Source of the DNA: Candidatus Hermodarchaeota archaeon
Lineage (GTDB): Archaea > Asgardarchaeota > Thorarchaeia > Thorarchaeales > Thorarchaeaceae
Direction of reading: 5' to 3'
Length of the DNA: 48,396 nt
Assembly (NCBI GenBank): GCA_048885865.1
Contig: JBHLLF010000022.1
Location: 1-48,396 of the forward strand
In this document: positions 10,989 to 19,829 of the stretch, one piece after another
Numbering within the stretch: position 1 is the stretch's first letter
Layout of the letters: every line of letters begins with the position of its first letter
Position numbers and translations under genes: made by a program
The notes under the pieces: generated by a model
Told to the model about the DNA's origin: nothing
Seen by the model: the letters and a program-made list of their open reading frames with translations, nothing else
Database searches by the model: none

Positions 10989-13625
10989 CTATTTGGCGCC
11001 GCCTTTTGCGCTTATCTGACGAAGAACGACCTGCACCAAAATATCTTCACCAAGCTTGATCTGATGCAAATCAGCTTCACCATCGAATACTGTGCCATTG
11101 CACATCCTAAAGCGCCATCTGAATACATTCTGTAGCCCAAGGATTGCTGATTCAAGAACAGCTGCAGTTCTCTTCTTTGATGATACACCACCCGGTTGAA
11201 CTCGAGGGGATATGTCCCACAGATGCTTTCCAACAACATCTGTCTTTTTACAGCCAAATATCCGTAGTGCTGCTCTGTTGAAATCAATGATTTCTGCATC
11301 CCGGAGCAATATAATAGGTTCTTCAAATGAAGAAAAGGTCAACCTATATTCCTCAACACCTTTGCTGATTGCTTTCTGTAGTGACCTGATTCTTGTGACA
11401 TCATGCACCAGGATTTGGAGTGCAGGTGAACCTTCATACAATATCCTAGATGGATAAATTCGATATTGGACAACATGTCCGTTTCTGTGCAAGTACTCAT
11501 CCTCATAACCCTGGGGAGGAGCATCTAGGCGTCCTTCAAGGATGTCATTCAAGGTTTCGAGGGAACCAGCAAGGCTCCGAGGATGGACAACCTCCGTCAG
11601 CCAGTCTTGACCCATCGTGGTTAGTTCTTCTGGACTGTACCCAGAAACCCTAGTCATCGCTGGATTTGCATACACAATTCCAGGCGGAGTGCCCTGTACT
11701 ATGACAAGAGGCTGGTTGCTGGACTCAATCATAGTGCGGAACTTCTCCTCACTGCTCCTTAACTTCAATTCAGCTTTGTGGCGCTCTGTGATGTCCTGAA
11801 GATGTGCGAGATAAGATGTCACAGTACCAGTTCCCTCTACTCCAAGTGCAGAACCATTGATTTGAAGATAGATGGGATCCAGTTTTGTTGTCCTGAATCC
11901 AGCATCTCTCAAGTCATACTGCAATTCAAAACTGATGACCACGCCTTCCTCAATATCTTTCAAGACCCAGTCTGGCAAATTGGGATCTTCTTTCAGTACA
12001 TATTCGGTATAGTCACTTGGCTGTCTCACGCCAAGGATTTCCATTGCCGCTTGGTTTAGCTGCCTTATTCTTCCTTCTGAATTGAATAGAACGATGCCAA
12101 TGGGAGATGCCTCGAATAGGCTTCGGAACCATGACTCGCTGGCCCGAAGCGTTTCTTCAGCCTCTCGCTGCTCAGTTATATCGACTTCTAGGGACTGCAT
12201 TGCTCGCATTCCATCATGCTCAATAATATTCACATACGAGTCTACCCATCTCACTTCACCATTGGGCTGCATATAGCGAAATCTGTGCCTAGGAAGCTCA
12301 CTTGCCCCTTCATCTACAGCTTTGTTTCGCTCTTTCAATTCAGGAATATCATCAGGATGAACCATGCCCCATGTGTCCTTCGCAGACATAGAAAGCAGTT
12401 CTTTCACTGATCTTCCGACAATCTCAGCATATGCAGGATTTGCGAACAATATTCTTCCTTCACTCAATATCACAATACCCTGAATCGACTCATCAACAAG
12501 TCGACGATATCTCTGCTCGCTCCTGTCAAGGGCAGCCATCATAAGTTTCTCACTAGTTATGTCTAGAATAGTTCCCGCTGCTCGAAGGGGAGTCCCCTGA
12601 TCGTCTCTCTCGGCAACCTGTCCCCGGTCAAGAACCCAAATGTATTTGCCATACTTGTTCTTCATCCGGTACTCAGAGGAGTAATTGTTGGACTTACCGT
12701 CTACATGGTCATTCCAAGATTCCGTAGCCATTTTCACGTCATCAGGATGGATAAGGTCCTCCCATTTATCATCCAAGGAATTCATTTCATCAAGAGTATA
12801 GCCAAGCATCTCAGCATACTGCGCGCTGAATTCCATTTGCCCAGTTTTATGATGCCAGTCCCACGGTGCCAGGTTTGCTCCTCTAAGTGCAAGATCAAGT
12901 TTCTCCTGACTGATTCTCAGAGCCTCCTGAGCACTCCTCTGAGAAGTGATGTCTCTTACCACCGAATATATGCTCTCCCCATCGTCATGGAGGCTCATTG
13001 TCACTGAGAACCAATAGGTCTTCCTTCCTATCTTCAGAGAGTATTCAAAGGCATCCGCTTGTCCAGTTTCCTTAACTTTCTCTGCGAGCTCAACGGCCTT
13101 TTTGTTGACTTCTTGGGGAAGTACATCTCTCTCAGCGAGCTCAGTCGATATCTCGAATGTTGTTGGGACAAAGAATCTAGCGCGGGACCTGAGATACATC
13201 CCCCGAACCCGCTTTGCCCCTCTAGCATCTTCTGCTGGCGGTGGATATTGCTCGACAAGACCTTGCTCCAAGAGCTTTCTCAGATGATAGTAGCATTTGA
13301 ATACAGACACATCAAGTTCAGGACTAGCCTCGTTGATCTGATGAAGAATCTCCTGCACATTCATCCAATAGCGAAGGGATGGCGTCTTGACGGTTATCTC
13401 TTCAGTCAACACCGTGCCATCTTCGAGTGTCCTCTCGCTCCGTGTAATTGCGATGTCGAAGCTCTTCTGCCCTGAATCGAGAGCGCGAAGAATCGCACGC
13501 CTTGTAGGGTGATAAAGTGAATCTCTTTGATCACTCGTTTCCAGCACCAAGAAGCTCAATCGTTCAGATTCTGGAAACTCAGGTAATTCAGGACTATGGC
13601 TCGACATTTTGTGAGAATCCTCCAT
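10989..13625 (-). CDS. One-component sensor: N-terminal ArsR-like wHTH plus multi-PAS array (1 partial + 5 PAS), no kinase domain
   Basis: HPTRRAILRAL...CYYHLRKLLEQGLVE (wHTH); PAS/PAC motifs WDW..FS..YAEMLGY, IHPDD, VHPDD and several DIT/DVT ends. The track start TTG 13703 lies in the AT-rich promoter; ATG 13625 or 13607 is more likely. Confidence 0.88.
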   Translation of the reverse strand: MEDSHKMSSHSPELPEFPESERLSFLVLETSDQRDSLYHPTRRAILRALDSGQKSFDIAITRSERTLEDGTVLTEEITVKTPSLRYWMNVQEILHQINEASPELDVSVFKCYYHLRKLLEQGLVEQYPPPAEDARGAKRVRGMYLRSRARFFVPTTFEISTELAERDVLPQEVNKKAVELAEKVKETGQADAFEYSLKIGRKTYWFSVTMSLHDDGESIYSVVRDITSQRSAQEALRISQEKLDLALRGANLAPWDWHHKTGQMEFSAQYAEMLGYTLDEMNSLDDKWEDLIHPDDVKMATESWNDHVDGKSNNYSSEYRMKNKYGKYIWVLDRGQVAERDDQGTPLRAAGTILDITSEKLMMAALDRSEQRYRRLVDESIQGIVILSEGRILFANPAYAEIVGRSVKELLSMSAKDTWGMVHPDDIPELKERNKAVDEGASELPRHRFRYMQPNGEVRWVDSYVNIIEHDGMRAMQSLEVDITEQREAEETLRASESWFRSLFEASPIGIVLFNSEGRIRQLNQAAMEILGVRQPSDYTEYVLKEDPNLPDWVLKDIEEGVVISFELQYDLRDAGFRTTKLDPIYLQINGSALGVEGTGTVTSYLAHLQDITERHKAELKLRSSEEKFRTMIESSNQPLVIVQGTPPGIVYANPAMTRVSGYSPEELTTMGQDWLTEVVHPRSLAGSLETLNDILEGRLDAPPQGYEDEYLHRNGHVVQYRIYPSRILYEGSPALQILVHDVTRIRSLQKAISKGVEEYRLTFSSFEEPIILLRDAEIIDFNRAALRIFGCKKTDVVGKHLWDISPRVQPGGVSSKKRTAAVLESAILGLQNVFRWRFRMCNGTVFDGEADLHQIKLGEDILVQVVLRQISAKGGAK

Positions 13626-13747
13626 AGGAACGCGGAGACCCCATCCATTTTGTATAATGCAATAGCGTATAATAATTTTGGGTATTAATTTACTCTTTGC
13701 CAATTACTCAATATACTAATGCACAACATTTAAATTATAATAGATAT

Positions 13748-13791: not shown

Positions 13792-14598
13792 ATGGGTGAG
13801 CTGAAAATGCTCGAAACTAATGACAAAGACATTCTCAATGAAATGGGACCGACCCCAAAGGTCATACTCCAAGTTCAGAGTGACGAGCAGAGAAGAGCGC
13901 TCAGTCATCCAGCTAGGAAGCAAATCCTAAGTGTGCTTAGAAATGGAGTCGTAGACTTCACTACAGAAATCAGAAGAGAAGAGAAGACACTCGAAGACGG
14001 CACTGGACTGACTTACATGGTCGAGGTGAAGAGTCCAGCAATGCGATACTGGATGTCTGTGCCTGAGATCATGAAGCGTGTCAACGAAAGATTTCCGGAA
14101 TCTGAGATAACCAATTTTCAATGCTACTACCATCTTCAGAATCTACGTGATCATGGTCTAGTTGAACAATATCCCACCACTGGAGATATTGACGACGAGG
14201 AATCTTCGAAACGTGTCAGAGGCTTGCGATTCCGGACCTCTGCCCAATTCTTTGCTGTAGGAATCCAAGGGGGCTCACTGAAGGATTCAAACAGATTCTT
14301 CAGTATCCTCAATAATGAGCTTGGGGTAATCCTATCTGAAGAAGATAAGGACGCACTGGTCGCACTCCTCAATCAGCAAGACAATACTCTTTTCATTGCA
14401 CAAGAGTATCTCGCTGGTTTTCTGAGTGATACTGATTGCGTCATTTTGCCAATCATTCTAGAAAGACTCGCCCATGCTTTACTCTCTCAAGATCAGCGGT
14501 TCATAGACCGCTATCGAGCAGTGAAGAAGTTGCTTGACCGTTCAGGTGCGACATTTTCAGAGCTTGAAAATCTAGAGACAATGAGGGATGCAGAATGA
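13792..14598 (+). CDS. ArsR-like winged-helix transcriptional regulator, paralog of the N-terminal domain of the divergent PAS protein
   Basis: HPARKQILSVL...YWMSVPEI...CYYHLQNLRDHGLVEQYP, followed by a helical C-terminal domain. Confidence 0.85.
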   Translation: MGELKMLETNDKDILNEMGPTPKVILQVQSDEQRRALSHPARKQILSVLRNGVVDFTTEIRREEKTLEDGTGLTYMVEVKSPAMRYWMSVPEIMKRVNERFPESEITNFQCYYHLQNLRDHGLVEQYPTTGDIDDEESSKRVRGLRFRTSAQFFAVGIQGGSLKDSNRFFSILNNELGVILSEEDKDALVALLNQQDNTLFIAQEYLAGFLSDTDCVILPIILERLAHALLSQDQRFIDRYRAVKKLLDRSGATFSELENLETMRDAE

Positions 14599-15116
14599 GA
14601 AACGTTACAACAGGTGGGAATGTACACAAAACCGTTCTCTTGGGAGAGGGCGGCGTTGGGAAGACCAGTATAACGCTTCGGTATACTGAGGATCGGTTTG
14701 AGGAAAATCTGAAGATCACTATCGGAGCGAACTTCGCAACAAAACAAGTCCTCGTCGGCGAGGAAATACACACTCTGATGCTTTGGGATCTTGGTGGCCA
14801 GCCTCGATTTCGGGATGTAGTGAGTGGCTACTTTCGCGGAGCCAAGATTGCCATTGCGGTCTATGATGCCACTAGGCCGGTCTCATTAGATCGATTGACG
14901 GATTGGATTGAGCGTCTGAAAGAGGAGGCTCCGGATTGCCAACTTGTCTTTGTTGGAAACAAGAAGGATGCTCGAAATAATGGGAATGGTGTGGCGCTTC
15001 AAGAAGGAATTGAATTTGCTCAGAGGTACAACTCACCATGTTTTGAGGTATCAGCAAAGAGTGGTGAAGGCGTCAATGAGCTGTTTGAGATTGTTGCTAA
15101 TATTATGGCAAATTAG
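14595..15116 (+). CDS. Rab-like small GTPase (Ras superfamily)
   Basis: G1 GEGGVGKT, G2 T(IG), G3 WDLGGQ, G4 NKKD, G5 SAK. RabF-like motifs IGANF, LMLW, RFRDV, YFRGA, VYDAT. No C-terminal Cys prenylation motif. ATGA overlap with the upstream gene. Confidence 0.95.
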   Translation: MRNVTTGGNVHKTVLLGEGGVGKTSITLRYTEDRFEENLKITIGANFATKQVLVGEEIHTLMLWDLGGQPRFRDVVSGYFRGAKIAIAVYDATRPVSLDRLTDWIERLKEEAPDCQLVFVGNKKDARNNGNGVALQEGIEFAQRYNSPCFEVSAKSGEGVNELFEIVANIMAN

Positions 15117-15134
15117 AATCATGGAGGATCATAT

Positions 15135-15395
15135 ATGCCAAGGACAAAACTGAATCCATTCCAGTGTCCCGCTTGTGGCAACGGAAGTTTAGTTGAGATT
15201 GAAATTGATGAGAGAATAATAACTGAGGCTGAACGACTGCCAGCGGTTGTGACAACCAATTGCGGGAAGAACCACACACTAGTTGTATTCGTTGATGGGA
15301 AGTTCAAGATTAGGGACATTGAAGTTGCTTCAGCTATGGAAGGCGATTCTAAGGATGCCTTCACAAACACGGAGGACTGGTTCGGTTCGTTCTAA
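15135..15395 (+). CDS. Small Zn-ribbon protein (CxxC...CxxxH)
   Basis: CPACG...CGKNH; GGAGG SD upstream; in operon with the GTPase. Confidence 0.8.
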   Translation: MPRTKLNPFQCPACGNGSLVEIEIDERIITEAERLPAVVTTNCGKNHTLVVFVDGKFKIRDIEVASAMEGDSKDAFTNTEDWFGSF

Positions 15396-15444: not shown

Positions 15445-15888
15445 ATGTACGGTATAATGTTGGTAAACCATGCAGGTGAAACAGTTGCCTCAGTCGGTTG
15501 GGAAAACCTTGAGGGCGATGCGACCCTGTTTGGCGGCTTCCTCTCTGCGGTTCAGATATTCATCAAGAAGATTTCTGGAGGCACTGAGGTTGAAGAACTA
15601 CGATTCGGCAATATGAAGCTCGTCATCGGGAGCTCGAATGAATACCATGTTGTCACGCTTCATGAGGCCAATGCGAAAAAGGCGATTTCTGAGAACCGCA
15701 AGGTCACAGAACTCGTTGAAGAAAACATCGATGGACACCAAACGGACGGCTTTCTTGACCTGGTCAGAGAGATGATAACCAGAGATATGGCCTCAGATGA
15801 AGACGTCAGCAGAAGTGTGAAGGATTGGACAAAGTCAGTTGAAGACAAGAAGAATGCTGCAATTGACTGGGGAAAGACTGTGTTGTAG
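15445..15888 (+). CDS. Longin/roadblock-like domain protein
   Basis: From ATG 15445: MYGIMLVNHAGETVAS...DATLFGGFLSAVQIFIKKISGG..VEELRFGNMKLVI..YHVVTL, a beta-beta-alpha-beta-beta-beta-alpha pattern typical of longin domains. Confidence 0.75.
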   Translation: MYGIMLVNHAGETVASVGWENLEGDATLFGGFLSAVQIFIKKISGGTEVEELRFGNMKLVIGSSNEYHVVTLHEANAKKAISENRKVTELVEENIDGHQTDGFLDLVREMITRDMASDEDVSRSVKDWTKSVEDKKNAAIDWGKTVL

Positions 15889-15900
15889 GGTGTGTAAACC

Positions 15901-17274
15901 ATGGGGTTATACGAAACTACTCAACTCTATCTAGGATTAGCGGTTCTATTTGCTGCCCTGACAATTATCCGGTATAGCAGAAGCAAGTCTGCAGAGCTGG
16001 GTGCAGATCAAAAGAGCGCAATAAAGCCGCTGTATATCATAGCATTCGGCATTTTATTCTACAGTCTGGGTGCGCTTTCGATATACATCGAAGACACGCT
16101 GGGAATCTGGATTCTCTTCGACACATACATGGCATACTATGCATGCGCGATGGTCGAAGTGATTTCATTAAGTGTCGCAGCGGTAATGATAATGAACTCT
16201 AGGCGACTATATGCAATACCTGTTGCAATCACCATGGCAACCTCTGTTTTATTCGGTTCTGCATTTGTGTTCGAACAAACGACCGAGTTCCTGTGGGTGG
16301 CTGGATTCTTCCTTCCAGCAATTGTCCTCGTCTTTGTTGGAGGAGTATTCGTCTGGATTGCAAGGGGCACTGGCCGAAGCATCAGTGCCGCGCTTTCTTT
16401 TGCACTAATCACCCAGATTGCAGGATTGCCTGTCATCTACTTCAGCTCAATGCTTGGATCAGAGTTCATCTACACTTTATTCATTGTGCTTATGGGGCCT
16501 GCAATGATTGTATTCTCTTTCCTCCGCCCAGACCAGAAAGTGTCCTTTGAGCTGGTTGGGTATGGAGCAAGCTTTGCGGGACCAGCTATAATCATTGCAG
16601 GCCTCCAAAATGCTGGACTAACCACAGACCCATACTTCCTTGCGATTGCTGGAATGGGGGCGATAGCAGTGCTCTTCTCTCTTGGAACTGGTGCGTATCT
16701 ATATGGCAGATGGAGAGATTCTGGACAAATCCCAACTGGACTTATGATGACTAGTTTCTTCCTGTTGGCGGTTGGACAAATCTCGGGGATGCTAGGCAAC
16801 TTCGAGGTGATTCCCAGTCCAGATGCGTTCTACATCGAATTCATCTTGACTGGCTACGCCCTTGCAATTCTCGCAGTTGGAGCAATCTATGCTGCAGGGT
16901 GGAAGACAGCAGGGCTGGTGCCGATACTGGCATATCTGCCGATTTCAATCATGACGATTCAGGCATATCCTGCAGACATTGCGACAGTCTTCATGAATCT
17001 GATGTACATCACTGTGCCAACCATCGGGATTATGATACTTCCATCTCTGATCTTTATCGGCGTATGGTGGAAGATGCGCTCTAGACAGGCTCCAGGAAGG
17101 TTGCGTCCTTTGGGAGTGGCCCTGGCCATTTTCCTCTTTTTTGCCATCAGACTACCCCCTCTCATCGCTGAGCTCAGCGGTCTCGATTACGGCTACGGAT
17201 GGGTAGTCCTGAGTTTTGGAATGTTCTGGACAGCGCTGACAGGGCGCCTTGACAGGATTGCTGGGACTGTCTAA
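15901..17274 (+). CDS. Polytopic membrane protein, ~15 TM, apparent tandem of two 7TM-like units
   Basis: 457 aa with ~15 hydrophobic segments; basic loops after TM1/TM5 (RYSRSK, ARGTGR) recur after TM9/TM13 (GRWRDSG, KMRSRQ). Confidence 0.8.
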   Translation: MGLYETTQLYLGLAVLFAALTIIRYSRSKSAELGADQKSAIKPLYIIAFGILFYSLGALSIYIEDTLGIWILFDTYMAYYACAMVEVISLSVAAVMIMNSRRLYAIPVAITMATSVLFGSAFVFEQTTEFLWVAGFFLPAIVLVFVGGVFVWIARGTGRSISAALSFALITQIAGLPVIYFSSMLGSEFIYTLFIVLMGPAMIVFSFLRPDQKVSFELVGYGASFAGPAIIIAGLQNAGLTTDPYFLAIAGMGAIAVLFSLGTGAYLYGRWRDSGQIPTGLMMTSFFLLAVGQISGMLGNFEVIPSPDAFYIEFILTGYALAILAVGAIYAAGWKTAGLVPILAYLPISIMTIQAYPADIATVFMNLMYITVPTIGIMILPSLIFIGVWWKMRSRQAPGRLRPLGVALAIFLFFAIRLPPLIAELSGLDYGYGWVVLSFGMFWTALTGRLDRIAGTV

Positions 17275-17284
17275 TATGACTCAA

Positions 17285-17335
17285 AGAAGTGGGAGTCCCA
17301 TGGGCTCCTCTTCTGCTTTCTCTTTCTTCTTCTCT
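17285..17335 (+). terminator. Hairpin plus pyrimidine tract ending the GTPase operon
   Basis: AGAAG.GGGAG.CCC-AT-GGG-CTCC.CTTCT followed by GCTTTCTCTTTCTTCTTCTCT, 10 nt after the stop. Confidence 0.55.
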
Positions 17336-17487
17336 GAGCCCTAAGATCACGCACACAAGAAGAGGGCAAAGCGACCTCTATGCATCGAGCGTTTCCTTGG
17401 GACTCAAAAACAAGGTGTTAGGCCTTGCAAAAGGATGAATGAGTCTGAGCAAGATAGACTCAAAGCACAAAATGTATTGCTTAAGGC

Positions 17488-18014: not shown

Positions 18015-19829
18015 ATGCGCGTATATCTAGATGCAAACTTCTTCATCAGCGGTTTCAGCAACCGACCGAAAGATGTCTTCATAGTGAAGGAGGCGGCTGA
18101 AAAGGCAGGAATGGAACTCTGGGTCACTCGCCAGGTCTTTCAGGAGCTCAGATGGTACCTGAGAAGGGAGGCAGAGCAAGTAGTCCAGATTGATGAAACC
18201 CTCACAAAGGACATCAAGGAACTGATGGAGAGTATCAATAAGCCTGAAAGTTCTCTTCCTCAGCACAATGACATGTCTCTCATTCTTGGGGCAATGAGGG
18301 TCAAGAAGTCTAAGATCGTCACTAGTGACCTTAAGTTACTCAATACCATTCAAGACATCCAGGTGGACGTGGAAGGAATAGTTGGTTCGGCGTTTGTTCT
18401 TGAGCTCATGGAATCCATTGATGATGAGGGACTAAAGAACAAGCTATCAGTGCTGCGTGAGAGAATCTATGGCGAGGAAGTGAGATATAGTATCTCGCGC
18501 CAAGAGGCCTATGATCCCGTCACAAGAATTAGACTCATAGAGGAACATGCGCTCCGTGTACTTAGGGCAGTCAAGGCACCTGCAGAAGGGTTGGATAGAC
18601 AGCTTTCAAGGGGACAGCCGCTCTTTATTCTTGATTTCCTCGAGGACATCAAAGCTGGAATTCCCACGATGTTTGAGGATTTCCGAAATGGCAAGTACAA
18701 CACACTAGCCCTTGAGATTGAAGCCATTCAAAACGAGATTGAACGACTACTCATAGTTTCCACACTCACCAACGATTCAGACACTCATTCGAAGCTTGTT
18801 CAACATGCATCGGACTTGACGCTGTTTCTCTATTACTTGGAAATGATTTGTCACCTTTATCGTGGAACCAGGCAGGGCATTGAAGAGGCATTGGTCATCT
18901 CCGACGAGGCATTCAGACTCCTAATGTTCGCTGGGGTGTCCAATGATGAACTCAAAGCAAGCGTGTTCTTTGTTCGTATCGTTCTAGCAATGATCCGTGA
19001 GGACTATGATGAGATTGACTACTATTATTCCCTTTACGACTCAATGATTCGAAGGGTGGGACTCGAGGATATGATTGAGACCTCAGAAGGCCTATACGTC
19101 ATCATGCAGGTCTTGAGAGAGTTCATGGGTGGCTTCTCTCTCACAAAGAGCAAGCTCCAATATCCATCTGCAACTCTTGCTTTATTGAGCGATATCGCAA
19201 AACATGCAATTCAATTTGATGAGCACGATAATGCCTGGCAATTGGTTGTGACTTCATACAAGGTCGGTGTGGCGTATGGCAAGGAAGAAGGGGCTCTTGC
19301 ATCTTTCCTCATGCTCTATAAGATCTCATCCTCATCGCACGACAGATTCAAGCCAGCTTTGGAAAAGATTGCCGAGCATGCGCTCAAGATGTTTGTGAAG
19401 AAGGGCTGGGACACATCAAAAATAACTCCGATTCTGAACGAGATTCAAGGCAATTTGCCGCCCATTGAAGACATGACTACAAAGGAGCCAGTAGATTTGG
19501 AGGAGCTGCCTGATGAAGTTTGTAGTTGGATGGATGTCTTATCAGTGGAAACAATAAACGACAATACGACACTTGTTGTTAGGAATGAGCAGCTTCAGGT
19601 CAGAATCGGGATAGATATCATGAAACAGCCCGAGCTTGGAAACTTGAAGACAGGCCACAAGGTAGCTCTGATTGGTGGAAAATTCAGCCTAGCGAATGCA
19701 GATCCAGAAGTGGTGGATAAATACGCTGTCATGCTCATCATAACTCCTGGCGATGATTCAGAGATCTCCTATGAGGGCGAGTATGGTTTTAGCTGGCTCA
19801 AAATCGCAGAACCTGAACCTGAAGTATAA
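18015..19829 (+). CDS. PIN-domain nuclease fused to a helical (TPR-like) region and a C-terminal beta domain
   Basis: RVYLDANFF, VFQEL, NDMSLI and IVTSDLKL supply the four PIN acidic residues; ~350 aa helical middle; beta-rich C-terminus. Confidence 0.8.
   Translation: MRVYLDANFFISGFSNRPKDVFIVKEAAEKAGMELWVTRQVFQELRWYLRREAEQVVQIDETLTKDIKELMESINKPESSLPQHNDMSLILGAMRVKKSKIVTSDLKLLNTIQDIQVDVEGIVGSAFVLELMESIDDEGLKNKLSVLRERIYGEEVRYSISRQEAYDPVTRIRLIEEHALRVLRAVKAPAEGLDRQLSRGQPLFILDFLEDIKAGIPTMFEDFRNGKYNTLALEIEAIQNEIERLLIVSTLTNDSDTHSKLVQHASDLTLFLYYLEMICHLYRGTRQGIEEALVISDEAFRLLMFAGVSNDELKASVFFVRIVLAMIREDYDEIDYYYSLYDSMIRRVGLEDMIETSEGLYVIMQVLREFMGGFSLTKSKLQYPSATLALLSDIAKHAIQFDEHDNAWQLVVTSYKVGVAYGKEEGALASFLMLYKISSSSHDRFKPALEKIAEHALKMFVKKGWDTSKITPILNEIQGNLPPIEDMTTKEPVDLEELPDEVCSWMDVLSVETINDNTTLVVRNEQLQVRIGIDIMKQPELGNLKTGHKVALIGGKFSLANADPEVVDKYAVMLIITPGDDSEISYEGEYGFSWLKIAEPEPEV

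Follow-up and report, generated by a model that had tools for sequence, protein, structure and literature searches.

The 48,396-nt stretch of DNA analyzed here (hereafter the window; positions 1 to 48,396 of contig JBHLLF010000022.1, assembly GCA_048885865.1, Candidatus Hermodarchaeota archaeon, placed in the Thorarchaeaceae by GTDB) encodes a 457-amino-acid (aa) polytopic membrane protein, in a cassette with a Rab-like small GTPase, a longin-type protein, and a zinc-ribbon-like protein. The membrane protein is predicted to consist of two duplicated seven-transmembrane-helix (7TM) bundles joined by one additional helix, and it is, on balance, likely to be the membrane receptor or docking subunit of a Thorarchaeota-restricted, four-component small-GTPase module. 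Direct support was obtained for its topology, for its fold (as predicted by modeling), for the duplication within the chain, for the assignment of the longin, for the constant linkage of the genes, and for the conservation of the cytoplasmic face.

Topology of the Membrane Protein

Hydropathy analysis revealed ~15 hydrophobic segments in the membrane protein. The AlphaFold2 whole-chain model, built with 36 homologues as input (predicted local distance difference test, pLDDT, 87.9; predicted template modeling score, pTM, 0.87; five models in agreement at pLDDT 85.6–87.9), placed transmembrane helices TM1–7 within residues 3–208, TM8 at residues 217–237, and TM9–15 within residues 244–446, followed by a short helix at residues 449–455. 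The N-terminal half modeled alone gave the same helices. The 7+1+7 count put forward in an initial annotation, made from the letters and open reading frames of the window, is thus borne out by both the hydropathy segments and the modeled helices. The same annotation claimed that there is no soluble output domain, and we agree, given that all loops in the model stay within ~18 residues. Longer or fused versions of the protein were also sought and none was found, although this is weak evidence.

Across 49 non-redundant homologues, the loops assigned as cytoplasmic contained a mean of 21.0 Lys and Arg residues per sequence versus 0.6 in the loops assigned as outside, and the topology is therefore N-out/C-in. 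The chain finishes TM1–7 inside the cell, returns to the outside through TM8, and retraces the N-out/C-in path with TM9–15. Both units accordingly have the orientation of the G protein-coupled receptor (GPCR)-type 7TM fold by the positive-inside count, with TM8 resetting the second unit. An alternating pattern of basic loops and an extra, inverting helix that gives both units one orientation had each been proposed at the outset, and we recovered the former in the charge distribution and the latter in the charge distribution together with TM8. A single basic residue, R417 (window 17149–17151), occurs on the outer half of the protein; it sits in the motif I-R-L-P-P, close to where TM14 reaches the outside, and is at least 90% conserved among the closer paralogues.

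Internal Duplication

The two halves share a clear sequence repeat. Using the 62-sequence family alignment, hhalign aligned residues 1–214 with residues 240–457 at a probability of 96.5% (E 7e-10), pairing residues 37–164 with 272–399 (i.e., TM2–5 with TM10–13, the 7+1+7 register) and the invariant P43 with P278. Reversal of one half abolished the signal (P 0.22 and 0.46) and reversal of both halves brought it back (2.7e-9). An earlier comparison with 36 close sequences gave the expected register but was weak (P 0.002), and the signal became clear only once the distant paralogues had been added. The likeness of the halves was judged by this repeat together with the PDB chains heading both fold lists, and six such chains (8oyx_B, 8jmt_A, 9jqx_A, 8oyy_B, 7c7s_A, and 8ikj_R) top the list of each half. 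The half-versus-half correspondence that the initial annotation had proposed for checking was hence found in the predicted register, and we read the two bundles, on this sequence evidence, as duplicates in which TMn is equivalent to TM(n+8). A search for half-size forms returned only contig-end fragments, and a single-7TM ancestor was not found.

Predicted Fold and Excluded Families

The folds that ranked highest for the membrane protein were receptor-type 7TM bundles, comprising GPCRs and microbial rhodopsins, rather than the transporter or enzyme fold that the initial annotation had named as counting against two 7TM sensor units. In the predicted model, each half (~200 residues) has seven helices in the order and packing of GPCRs and rhodopsins, which is an assignment to a structural class and not to a sequence family. 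In a Foldseek search against the PDB, neither the whole model nor the N-terminal half had a match at E ≤0.001; the best rows for the whole model were LYCHOS/GPR155 (E 0.023) and many GPCRs, with low whole-chain template modeling scores (TM-scores).

The depth of these data bears on a further possibility, namely that the GPCR-like fold and the 7+1+7 reading are modeling artefacts and the architecture is another one. The alignments are shallow (36 and 54 sequences) and drawn from a single lineage, and the Foldseek E-values exceed 0.001, as this possibility would have it. Against it, the five models agree with one another and with the N-terminal half modeled alone, and the 7+1+7 arrangement is also obtained without any model from hydropathy, the positive-inside rule, and the sequence repeat. 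We consider an artefact very improbable.

The fold searches also bear on whether the membrane protein is instead a transporter, channel, or lipid scramblase whose activity or localization is controlled by the GTPase module, which would make it a regulated effector and not a sensor. No transporter fold came near the top; the MATE, MurJ, and GatC rows in the whole-chain Foldseek search were weak (TM-score 0.10–0.20, E >0.1), and the top 50 lists from VIA-align contained no transporter folds, noting that one domain can fill such lists. The conservation pattern described below likewise speaks against such a regulated effector, and we regard it as unlikely.

At the level of sequence families, the membrane protein matched no entry in Pfam or NCBIfam, and 54 relatives likewise matched none in Pfam. 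A class A GPCR was rejected, as D/ERY, CWxP, and NPxxY are absent from both halves and there is no match to Pfam 7tm_1; TM3 ends in NSRR, TM7 contains GPAMIVF, and TM15 has no Pro. A microbial rhodopsin or other retinal protein was also rejected, with no Lys in TM7 (residues 189–208) or TM15 (residues 432–446); Lys occurs only at positions 29, 38, 42, 213, 335, and 391. The initial annotation had likened the halves to HisKA_7TM/7TMR-type sensors. This likeness does not extend to a family relationship, as there is no Pfam match and no profile-profile signal above reversed controls: the HisKA_7TM (PF16927) hidden Markov model (HMM) finds nothing in this genome, yet reaches above cut-off in 13 other Asgard genomes, and hhalign of either half against 17 such domains gave P 0.06–0.12, no better than the reversed controls. 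No histidine-kinase fusion was found in the family, in which the non-fragment representatives (428–491 aa) carry no extra domain. Protein Atlas returned ~215-aa bacterial hypothetical proteins (score 0.92) and a cluster with HisKA_7TM in 10% of its members (score 0.84), both of which we treated as leads only.

The Four-Gene Cassette

The membrane protein gene is the last of a tight run of genes on the + strand (Table 1), in which the stop of the HTH_20 gene overlaps the start of the GTPase gene and the four cassette genes are separated by gaps of 18, 52, and 12 nt. The GTPase, 86-aa, longin, and membrane protein genes are adjacent in every related locus with enough flanking sequence, including those of three paralogue types. 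Type 1 (~457 aa) is accompanied by the helix-turn-helix (HTH) gene and the divergent PAS-HTH gene, type 2 (~472–493 aa) lacks both, and type 3 is distant (22–27% identity), with the GTPase gene on the other side of the membrane protein gene, still adjacent. The HTH_20 regulator, confined to the 457-aa type, lies upstream of the cassette in L001, L004, L009, L011, L025, and L026, and the PAS-HTH neighbor is likewise found beside 457-aa-type cassettes in L001, L004, and L011.

Table 1. Coordinates of the membrane protein, its units, and the neighboring genes in the window.
Feature	Position	Strand	Basis or property
15-TM membrane protein, 457 aa	15901..17274	+	Open reading frame; 15 TM helices
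N-terminal 7TM unit, residues 1–214, TM1–7	15901..16542	+	N-out/C-in
TM8 linker helix, residues 217–237	16549..16611	+	Helix in AlphaFold2 model
C-terminal 7TM unit, residues 241–457, TM9–15 and short C-terminal helix 449–455	16621..17271	+	N-out/C-in
Rab-like small GTPase, 173 aa, first gene of the four-gene cassette	14595..15116	+	Pfam Ras E 1e-40
Zinc-ribbon-like protein, 86 aa	15135..15395	+	Family alignment; faint zinc-ribbon Pfam matches only
Longin-type protein, ~146 aa (start = ATG at 15448)	15448..15888	+	hhalign versus Asgard Fuz_longin_1 proteins
HTH_20-type regulator, 268 aa	13792..14598	+	Pfam HTH_20 E 6e-6
PAS-repeat and HTH_20 protein, 904 aa, divergently transcribed	10989..13703	-	Pfam PAS_3, PAS_8, PAS_9, HTH_20

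All three cassette types are present in the source genome. The second cassette lies on contig C11 (L041:3497-6472, +) and encodes a 488-aa membrane protein in the same gene order; the third, distant one lies on contig C6 (L042:3633-6287, -) in the order zinc-ribbon, longin, membrane protein, and GTPase. When pairwise-identity matrices were compared across 18 distinct cassettes, those of the membrane, ~147-aa (longin-type), and 86-aa proteins correlated strongly with one another (rho 0.83–0.92), and that of the GTPase, which is more conserved, correlated at a lower level (0.58–0.67). These correlations fit the duplication and co-divergence of whole cassettes, with contact between the products not proven by correlation alone.

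Just past the stop codon of the membrane protein gene, at window positions 17288–17340, lie a short inverted repeat rich in G+C (GGGAGTCCCATGGGCTCC) and, after it, a long run composed mostly of pyrimidines, plausibly the end of the transcription unit. The genes downstream of the cassette vary between related loci. The next large + strand open reading frame in the window (18015–19829, 604 aa), with weak N-terminal matches to PIN domains (E 3e-4 to 0.03), is not kept beside the cassette in other genomes.

Cassette Partners of the Membrane Protein

The first gene of the cassette encodes a Rab-like GTPase, as indicated by motifs G1–G5 and a match to the Ras-family HMM; its closest solved relatives are Rab31, Ypt51, Rab6, Rab22A, and the Thorarchaeota Rab 7ezb. 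The motifs are intact (G1 GEGGVGKT, G3 DLGGQ with the catalytic Gln, G4 NKKD, and G5 SAK), and the same four are seen in the other cassette GTPases that are complete in the DNA examined. A C-terminal prenylation Cys is absent from the last 10 residues of this GTPase and of 28 of the 30 sequences listed (one of the two with such a Cys being a truncated read with X residues), and the GTPase therefore has no obvious membrane anchor of its own.

We assign the ~147-aa protein, from profile comparison, as a longin of the Fuz/Mon1/HPS1 type, because its family profile aligns with Fuz_longin_1 proteins far above both the reversed and the Robl_LC7 comparisons. Against 11 Asgard proteins passing Pfam Fuz_longin_1 (PF19036), hhalign gave a probability of 96.3% (E 1.8e-9, 79 columns), with reversed controls at P 0.006–0.012. 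Direct Pfam matching was faint (one of 17 members, at E 0.16), and a search of PDB sequences with the family profile gave only a chance match (E 0.3). Roadblock/LC7 (PF03259) was rejected for this protein, as hhalign against 15 Asgard Robl_LC7 proteins gave P 0.17, equal to the controls. Protein Atlas offered as a lead a cluster named Roadblock/LAMTOR2, in which Fuz_longin_1 occurs in 22% of members. Longins of the Fuz_longin_1 type are of interest here because, in Rab exchange factors like Mon1-Ccz1, the catalytic site is built from the first longin domains (PMC8833172, PMC12383261). In the cassette protein, the longin is followed by a helical tail with the conserved end D-W-G-K-x-V-[FL].

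The 86-aa protein, present in every cassette, contains an invariant C11-P-x-C14 ... C43 ... H47 pattern and a conserved C-terminal tail with an invariant Trp near the C terminus. The tails of the zinc-ribbon (15370–15395) and longin (15850–15888) proteins resemble each other: each has a hydrophobic C terminus, preceded at a distance of five or six residues by an invariant Trp (…S-W-F-D-S-L and …D-W-G-K-x-V-F, respectively). The occurrence of two similar Trp tails alongside two 7TM units is suggestive.

Conservation of the Cytoplasmic Face

Conservation in the membrane protein is concentrated on its cytoplasmic side, both in the loops (column entropy of 1.86 bits for cytoplasmic versus 2.69 bits for outer loops, p 9e-9) and in the helix halves (1.85 versus 2.40, p 1e-10). 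Of the 21 highly conserved positions (weighted top-residue frequency ≥0.85), most are cytoplasmic loops or cytoplasmic helix ends, namely P43, L44, F207, E217, L218, G220, Y221, R270, T279, A331, P341, R402, L404, T447, and G448. The strongest motif in the family runs from the end of TM7 through the next loop into the start of TM8 (LMGPAM..F.FLRPDQK, then E217-L-x-G-Y-G, with E217, L218, G220, and Y221 near-invariant across the 62 sequences), and for this reason we consider the linker region, on its sequence conservation, a functional hot spot and not a passive connector. Within the helices, no D, E, K, R, H, Q, or N is ≥70% conserved across the family. This, with conservation that is cytoplasmic and not mid-membrane, argues against the transporter, channel, or scramblase described above, and the pattern fits a docking surface for cytoplasmic partners better than it does a conserved pore or active site.

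A docking surface alone could also serve a passive membrane anchor or scaffold that holds the longin, zinc-ribbon, and GTPase proteins without any sensing, as LAMTOR1 holds Ragulator-Rag at the lysosome through lipid anchors. A GTPase lacking a lipid-anchor Cys, a conserved cytoplasmic face with a variable outer face, and the lack of an extracellular domain are all compatible with such a role. However, a duplicated bundle of 15 helices, kept at full length in the non-fragment representatives, would be elaborate for an anchor, and three co-diverging paralogous cassettes in one genome suggest specificity. We think an anchor quite unlikely, although the tests performed here did not distinguish it from a receptor; together with a regulated transporter or scramblase, it forms the main alternative to a receptor.

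Proposed Mechanism

Under the receptor or docking interpretation that we favor, the membrane protein would have arisen by tandem duplication of a seven-helix bundle with the GPCR/rhodopsin arrangement. With the eighth helix between them, both copies could adopt the N-out/C-in orientation, and the protein would form a covalent pseudo-dimer whose receptor-like units expose hardly anything beyond the membrane. The longin and zinc-ribbon proteins may dock on the cytoplasmic face, above all at the TM7-loop-TM8 junction and at the loops that follow TM9, TM13, and TM15. As adaptors, they could allow the membrane protein to recruit the anchorless Rab-like GTPase or to change the nucleotide state of this GTPase. 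If a small or lipidic ligand, or the condition of the membrane itself, altered the conformation of the 7TM pair, the outcome would be activation of the GTPase at the membrane. The physical complex, the exchange-factor activity, any ligand, the act of sensing, and the direction of signaling in this scheme are what we infer from the evidence above.

The initial annotation had suggested the co-encoded GTPase and longin as the output of the membrane protein. The linkage of the four genes, the identity of the longin, and the conservation of the cytoplasmic face support this part indirectly; sensing by the 7TM units and their coupling to the GTPase are proposals. In its most specific form, the fused GPCR-fold pair would answer a membrane or external cue by catalyzing nucleotide exchange on the Rab-like GTPase via the longin and a zinc-ribbon adaptor, each docked by its Trp tail into one 7TM unit, which we offer as a tentative and rather doubtful proposal.

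Comparison with Known Systems

The cassette parallels, by analogy, GPCRs in logic and the actinobacterial conservons in layout, and is a member of neither. As in GPCRs, the predicted units have seven helices in the same order and arrangement, N-out/C-in, with ~200 residues per half; two 7TM units lie side by side (as in class C dimers), the cytoplasmic face is conserved, and a GTPase is the genetic partner. The comparators here are the class C obligate dimers (GABA-B, 7c7s and 9jqx; GPR156) and adhesion receptors (ADGRL3, 8jmt; CD97, 8ikj). In contrast to GPCRs, the Thorarchaeota protein shows no sequence similarity to them and no DRY, NPxxY, or CWxP; its units are fused through an extra helix instead of being separate chains, with no extracellular domain, and its partner is a monomeric Rab-like GTPase with a separate longin instead of a heterotrimeric G protein. 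GPCRs are themselves the exchange factors for their G proteins.

In the conservon (CvnA-D), a membrane sensor is encoded together with a roadblock protein, another protein of small size, and a Ras-like GTPase (PMC13343842, PMC13621833, PMC4316618). Like the cassette, it is a four-gene operon in which a sensor-like membrane protein is accompanied by a member of the roadblock/longin structural class, by a small protein, and by a Ras-superfamily GTPase taken as the output, and several paralogous copies occur per genome. However, the conservon membrane component is histidine-kinase-like and here it is a double 7TM protein without an ATPase domain; the conservon regulator is an MglB-type roadblock and here it is a longin (Robl_LC7 P 0.17); and the conservon GTPase is MglA-like and here it is Rab-like, in an archaeal lineage. 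We searched the cassette proteins for HATPase, Robl_LC7, and DUF742 and found no match, and given also the Rab-like GTPase, conservon membership was rejected and the layout is analogous only.

The tri-longin exchange factors Mon1-Ccz1, Fuzzy-Inturned, and HPS1-HPS4 (PMC8833172, PMC12383261) offer a further comparison, as the cassette longin aligns with Fuz_longin_1, their first longin domain, and is likewise paired with a Rab-like GTPase. They differ in having three longin domains, compared to a single longin and a helical tail in the cassette protein, and in using phosphatidylinositol 3-phosphate (PI3P) or amphipathic helices for membrane targeting, a role that the polytopic protein would serve here. 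LYCHOS/GPR155 (8u54, 9jbf, 8wr3), the best Foldseek row, differs from the membrane protein in combining a PIN-type transporter domain of 10 TM helices with a single GPCR domain and a DEP domain; the whole-chain TM-score is 0.2–0.3, with no evidence of common descent. Finally, HisKA_7TM (PF16927) and 7TMR-DISM proteins share seven-helix modules with short loops and basic cytoplasmic loops, but are fused to kinase or cyclase outputs, whereas the Thorarchaeota family has no fused domain.

Family Size and Distribution

The membrane protein belongs to a small family whose distribution is essentially limited to Thorarchaeota. When 5.8 billion proteins were searched by word index, 44 matched, and an exhaustive search of 1.84 billion cluster representatives gave 48 relatives (non-fragments 428–491 aa). 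The named sources are all Thorarchaeota or Promethearchaeota, except one Hodarchaeota record and one bin labeled Thermoplasmata; the latter relative (P0048, 470 aa, 39% identity), deposited as 'Thermoplasmata archaeon M9B2D', is probably from a mis-binned contig. In a sample of 300 other genomes of the phylum, the protein was found in 36 of the 76 from the source genome's own family. Two further families had it in 2/19 and 2/3 of their sampled genomes, and the remaining 27 families searched gave no match.

In several genomes of one genus (G120, G149, G103, G194, and G260), the whole-genome search matches are interrupted by a single in-frame TAG, accompanied in one case by a TAA. In the window, the longin gene stop (15886–15888) is in frame with the membrane protein gene start (15901), and hence these are likely due to the search reading through the upstream stop and not to broken genes.

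Our literature search found no paper describing the membrane protein family and none combining Thorarchaeota, 7TM, and GTPase. A preprint from 2026 includes Asgard '7TM proteins' and a 'class C GPCR' cluster in its listings, with no details that identify this family. In the databases, all family members are named 'hypothetical protein'.

Significance

Asgard archaea encode dozens of Rab-, Arf-, and Rag-like GTPases, together with many longin and roadblock proteins. In a cultured Lokiarchaeon, GTPase, longin, and roadblock genes are generally not found in operons (PMC10933270), so genome layout does not reveal which regulator or membrane site belongs to which GTPase. The cassette is an exception, in which one Rab-like GTPase, one longin, one zinc-binding protein, and one polytopic membrane protein occur together in three co-diverging copies per genome, forming a defined set of four proteins that can be expressed and tested for assembly into a complex, for exchange activity, and for recruitment to the membrane. 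As the family is restricted to Thorarchaeota, conclusions about the eukaryotic ancestor are limited. Nevertheless, the predicted GPCR-type bundle, which occurs in these Asgard archaea in fused duplicate and in genetic linkage with a G protein, has bearing on how receptor-to-GTPase coupling and the membrane targeting of Rab exchange factors could have begun. If the most specific form of the proposed mechanism is true, the cassette would link a 7TM receptor through an exchange factor to a G protein in a self-contained prokaryotic chain, and this among the closest relatives of eukaryotes. In that case, no earlier Asgard Rab-like GTPase would have had its regulators and membrane site assigned genetically.
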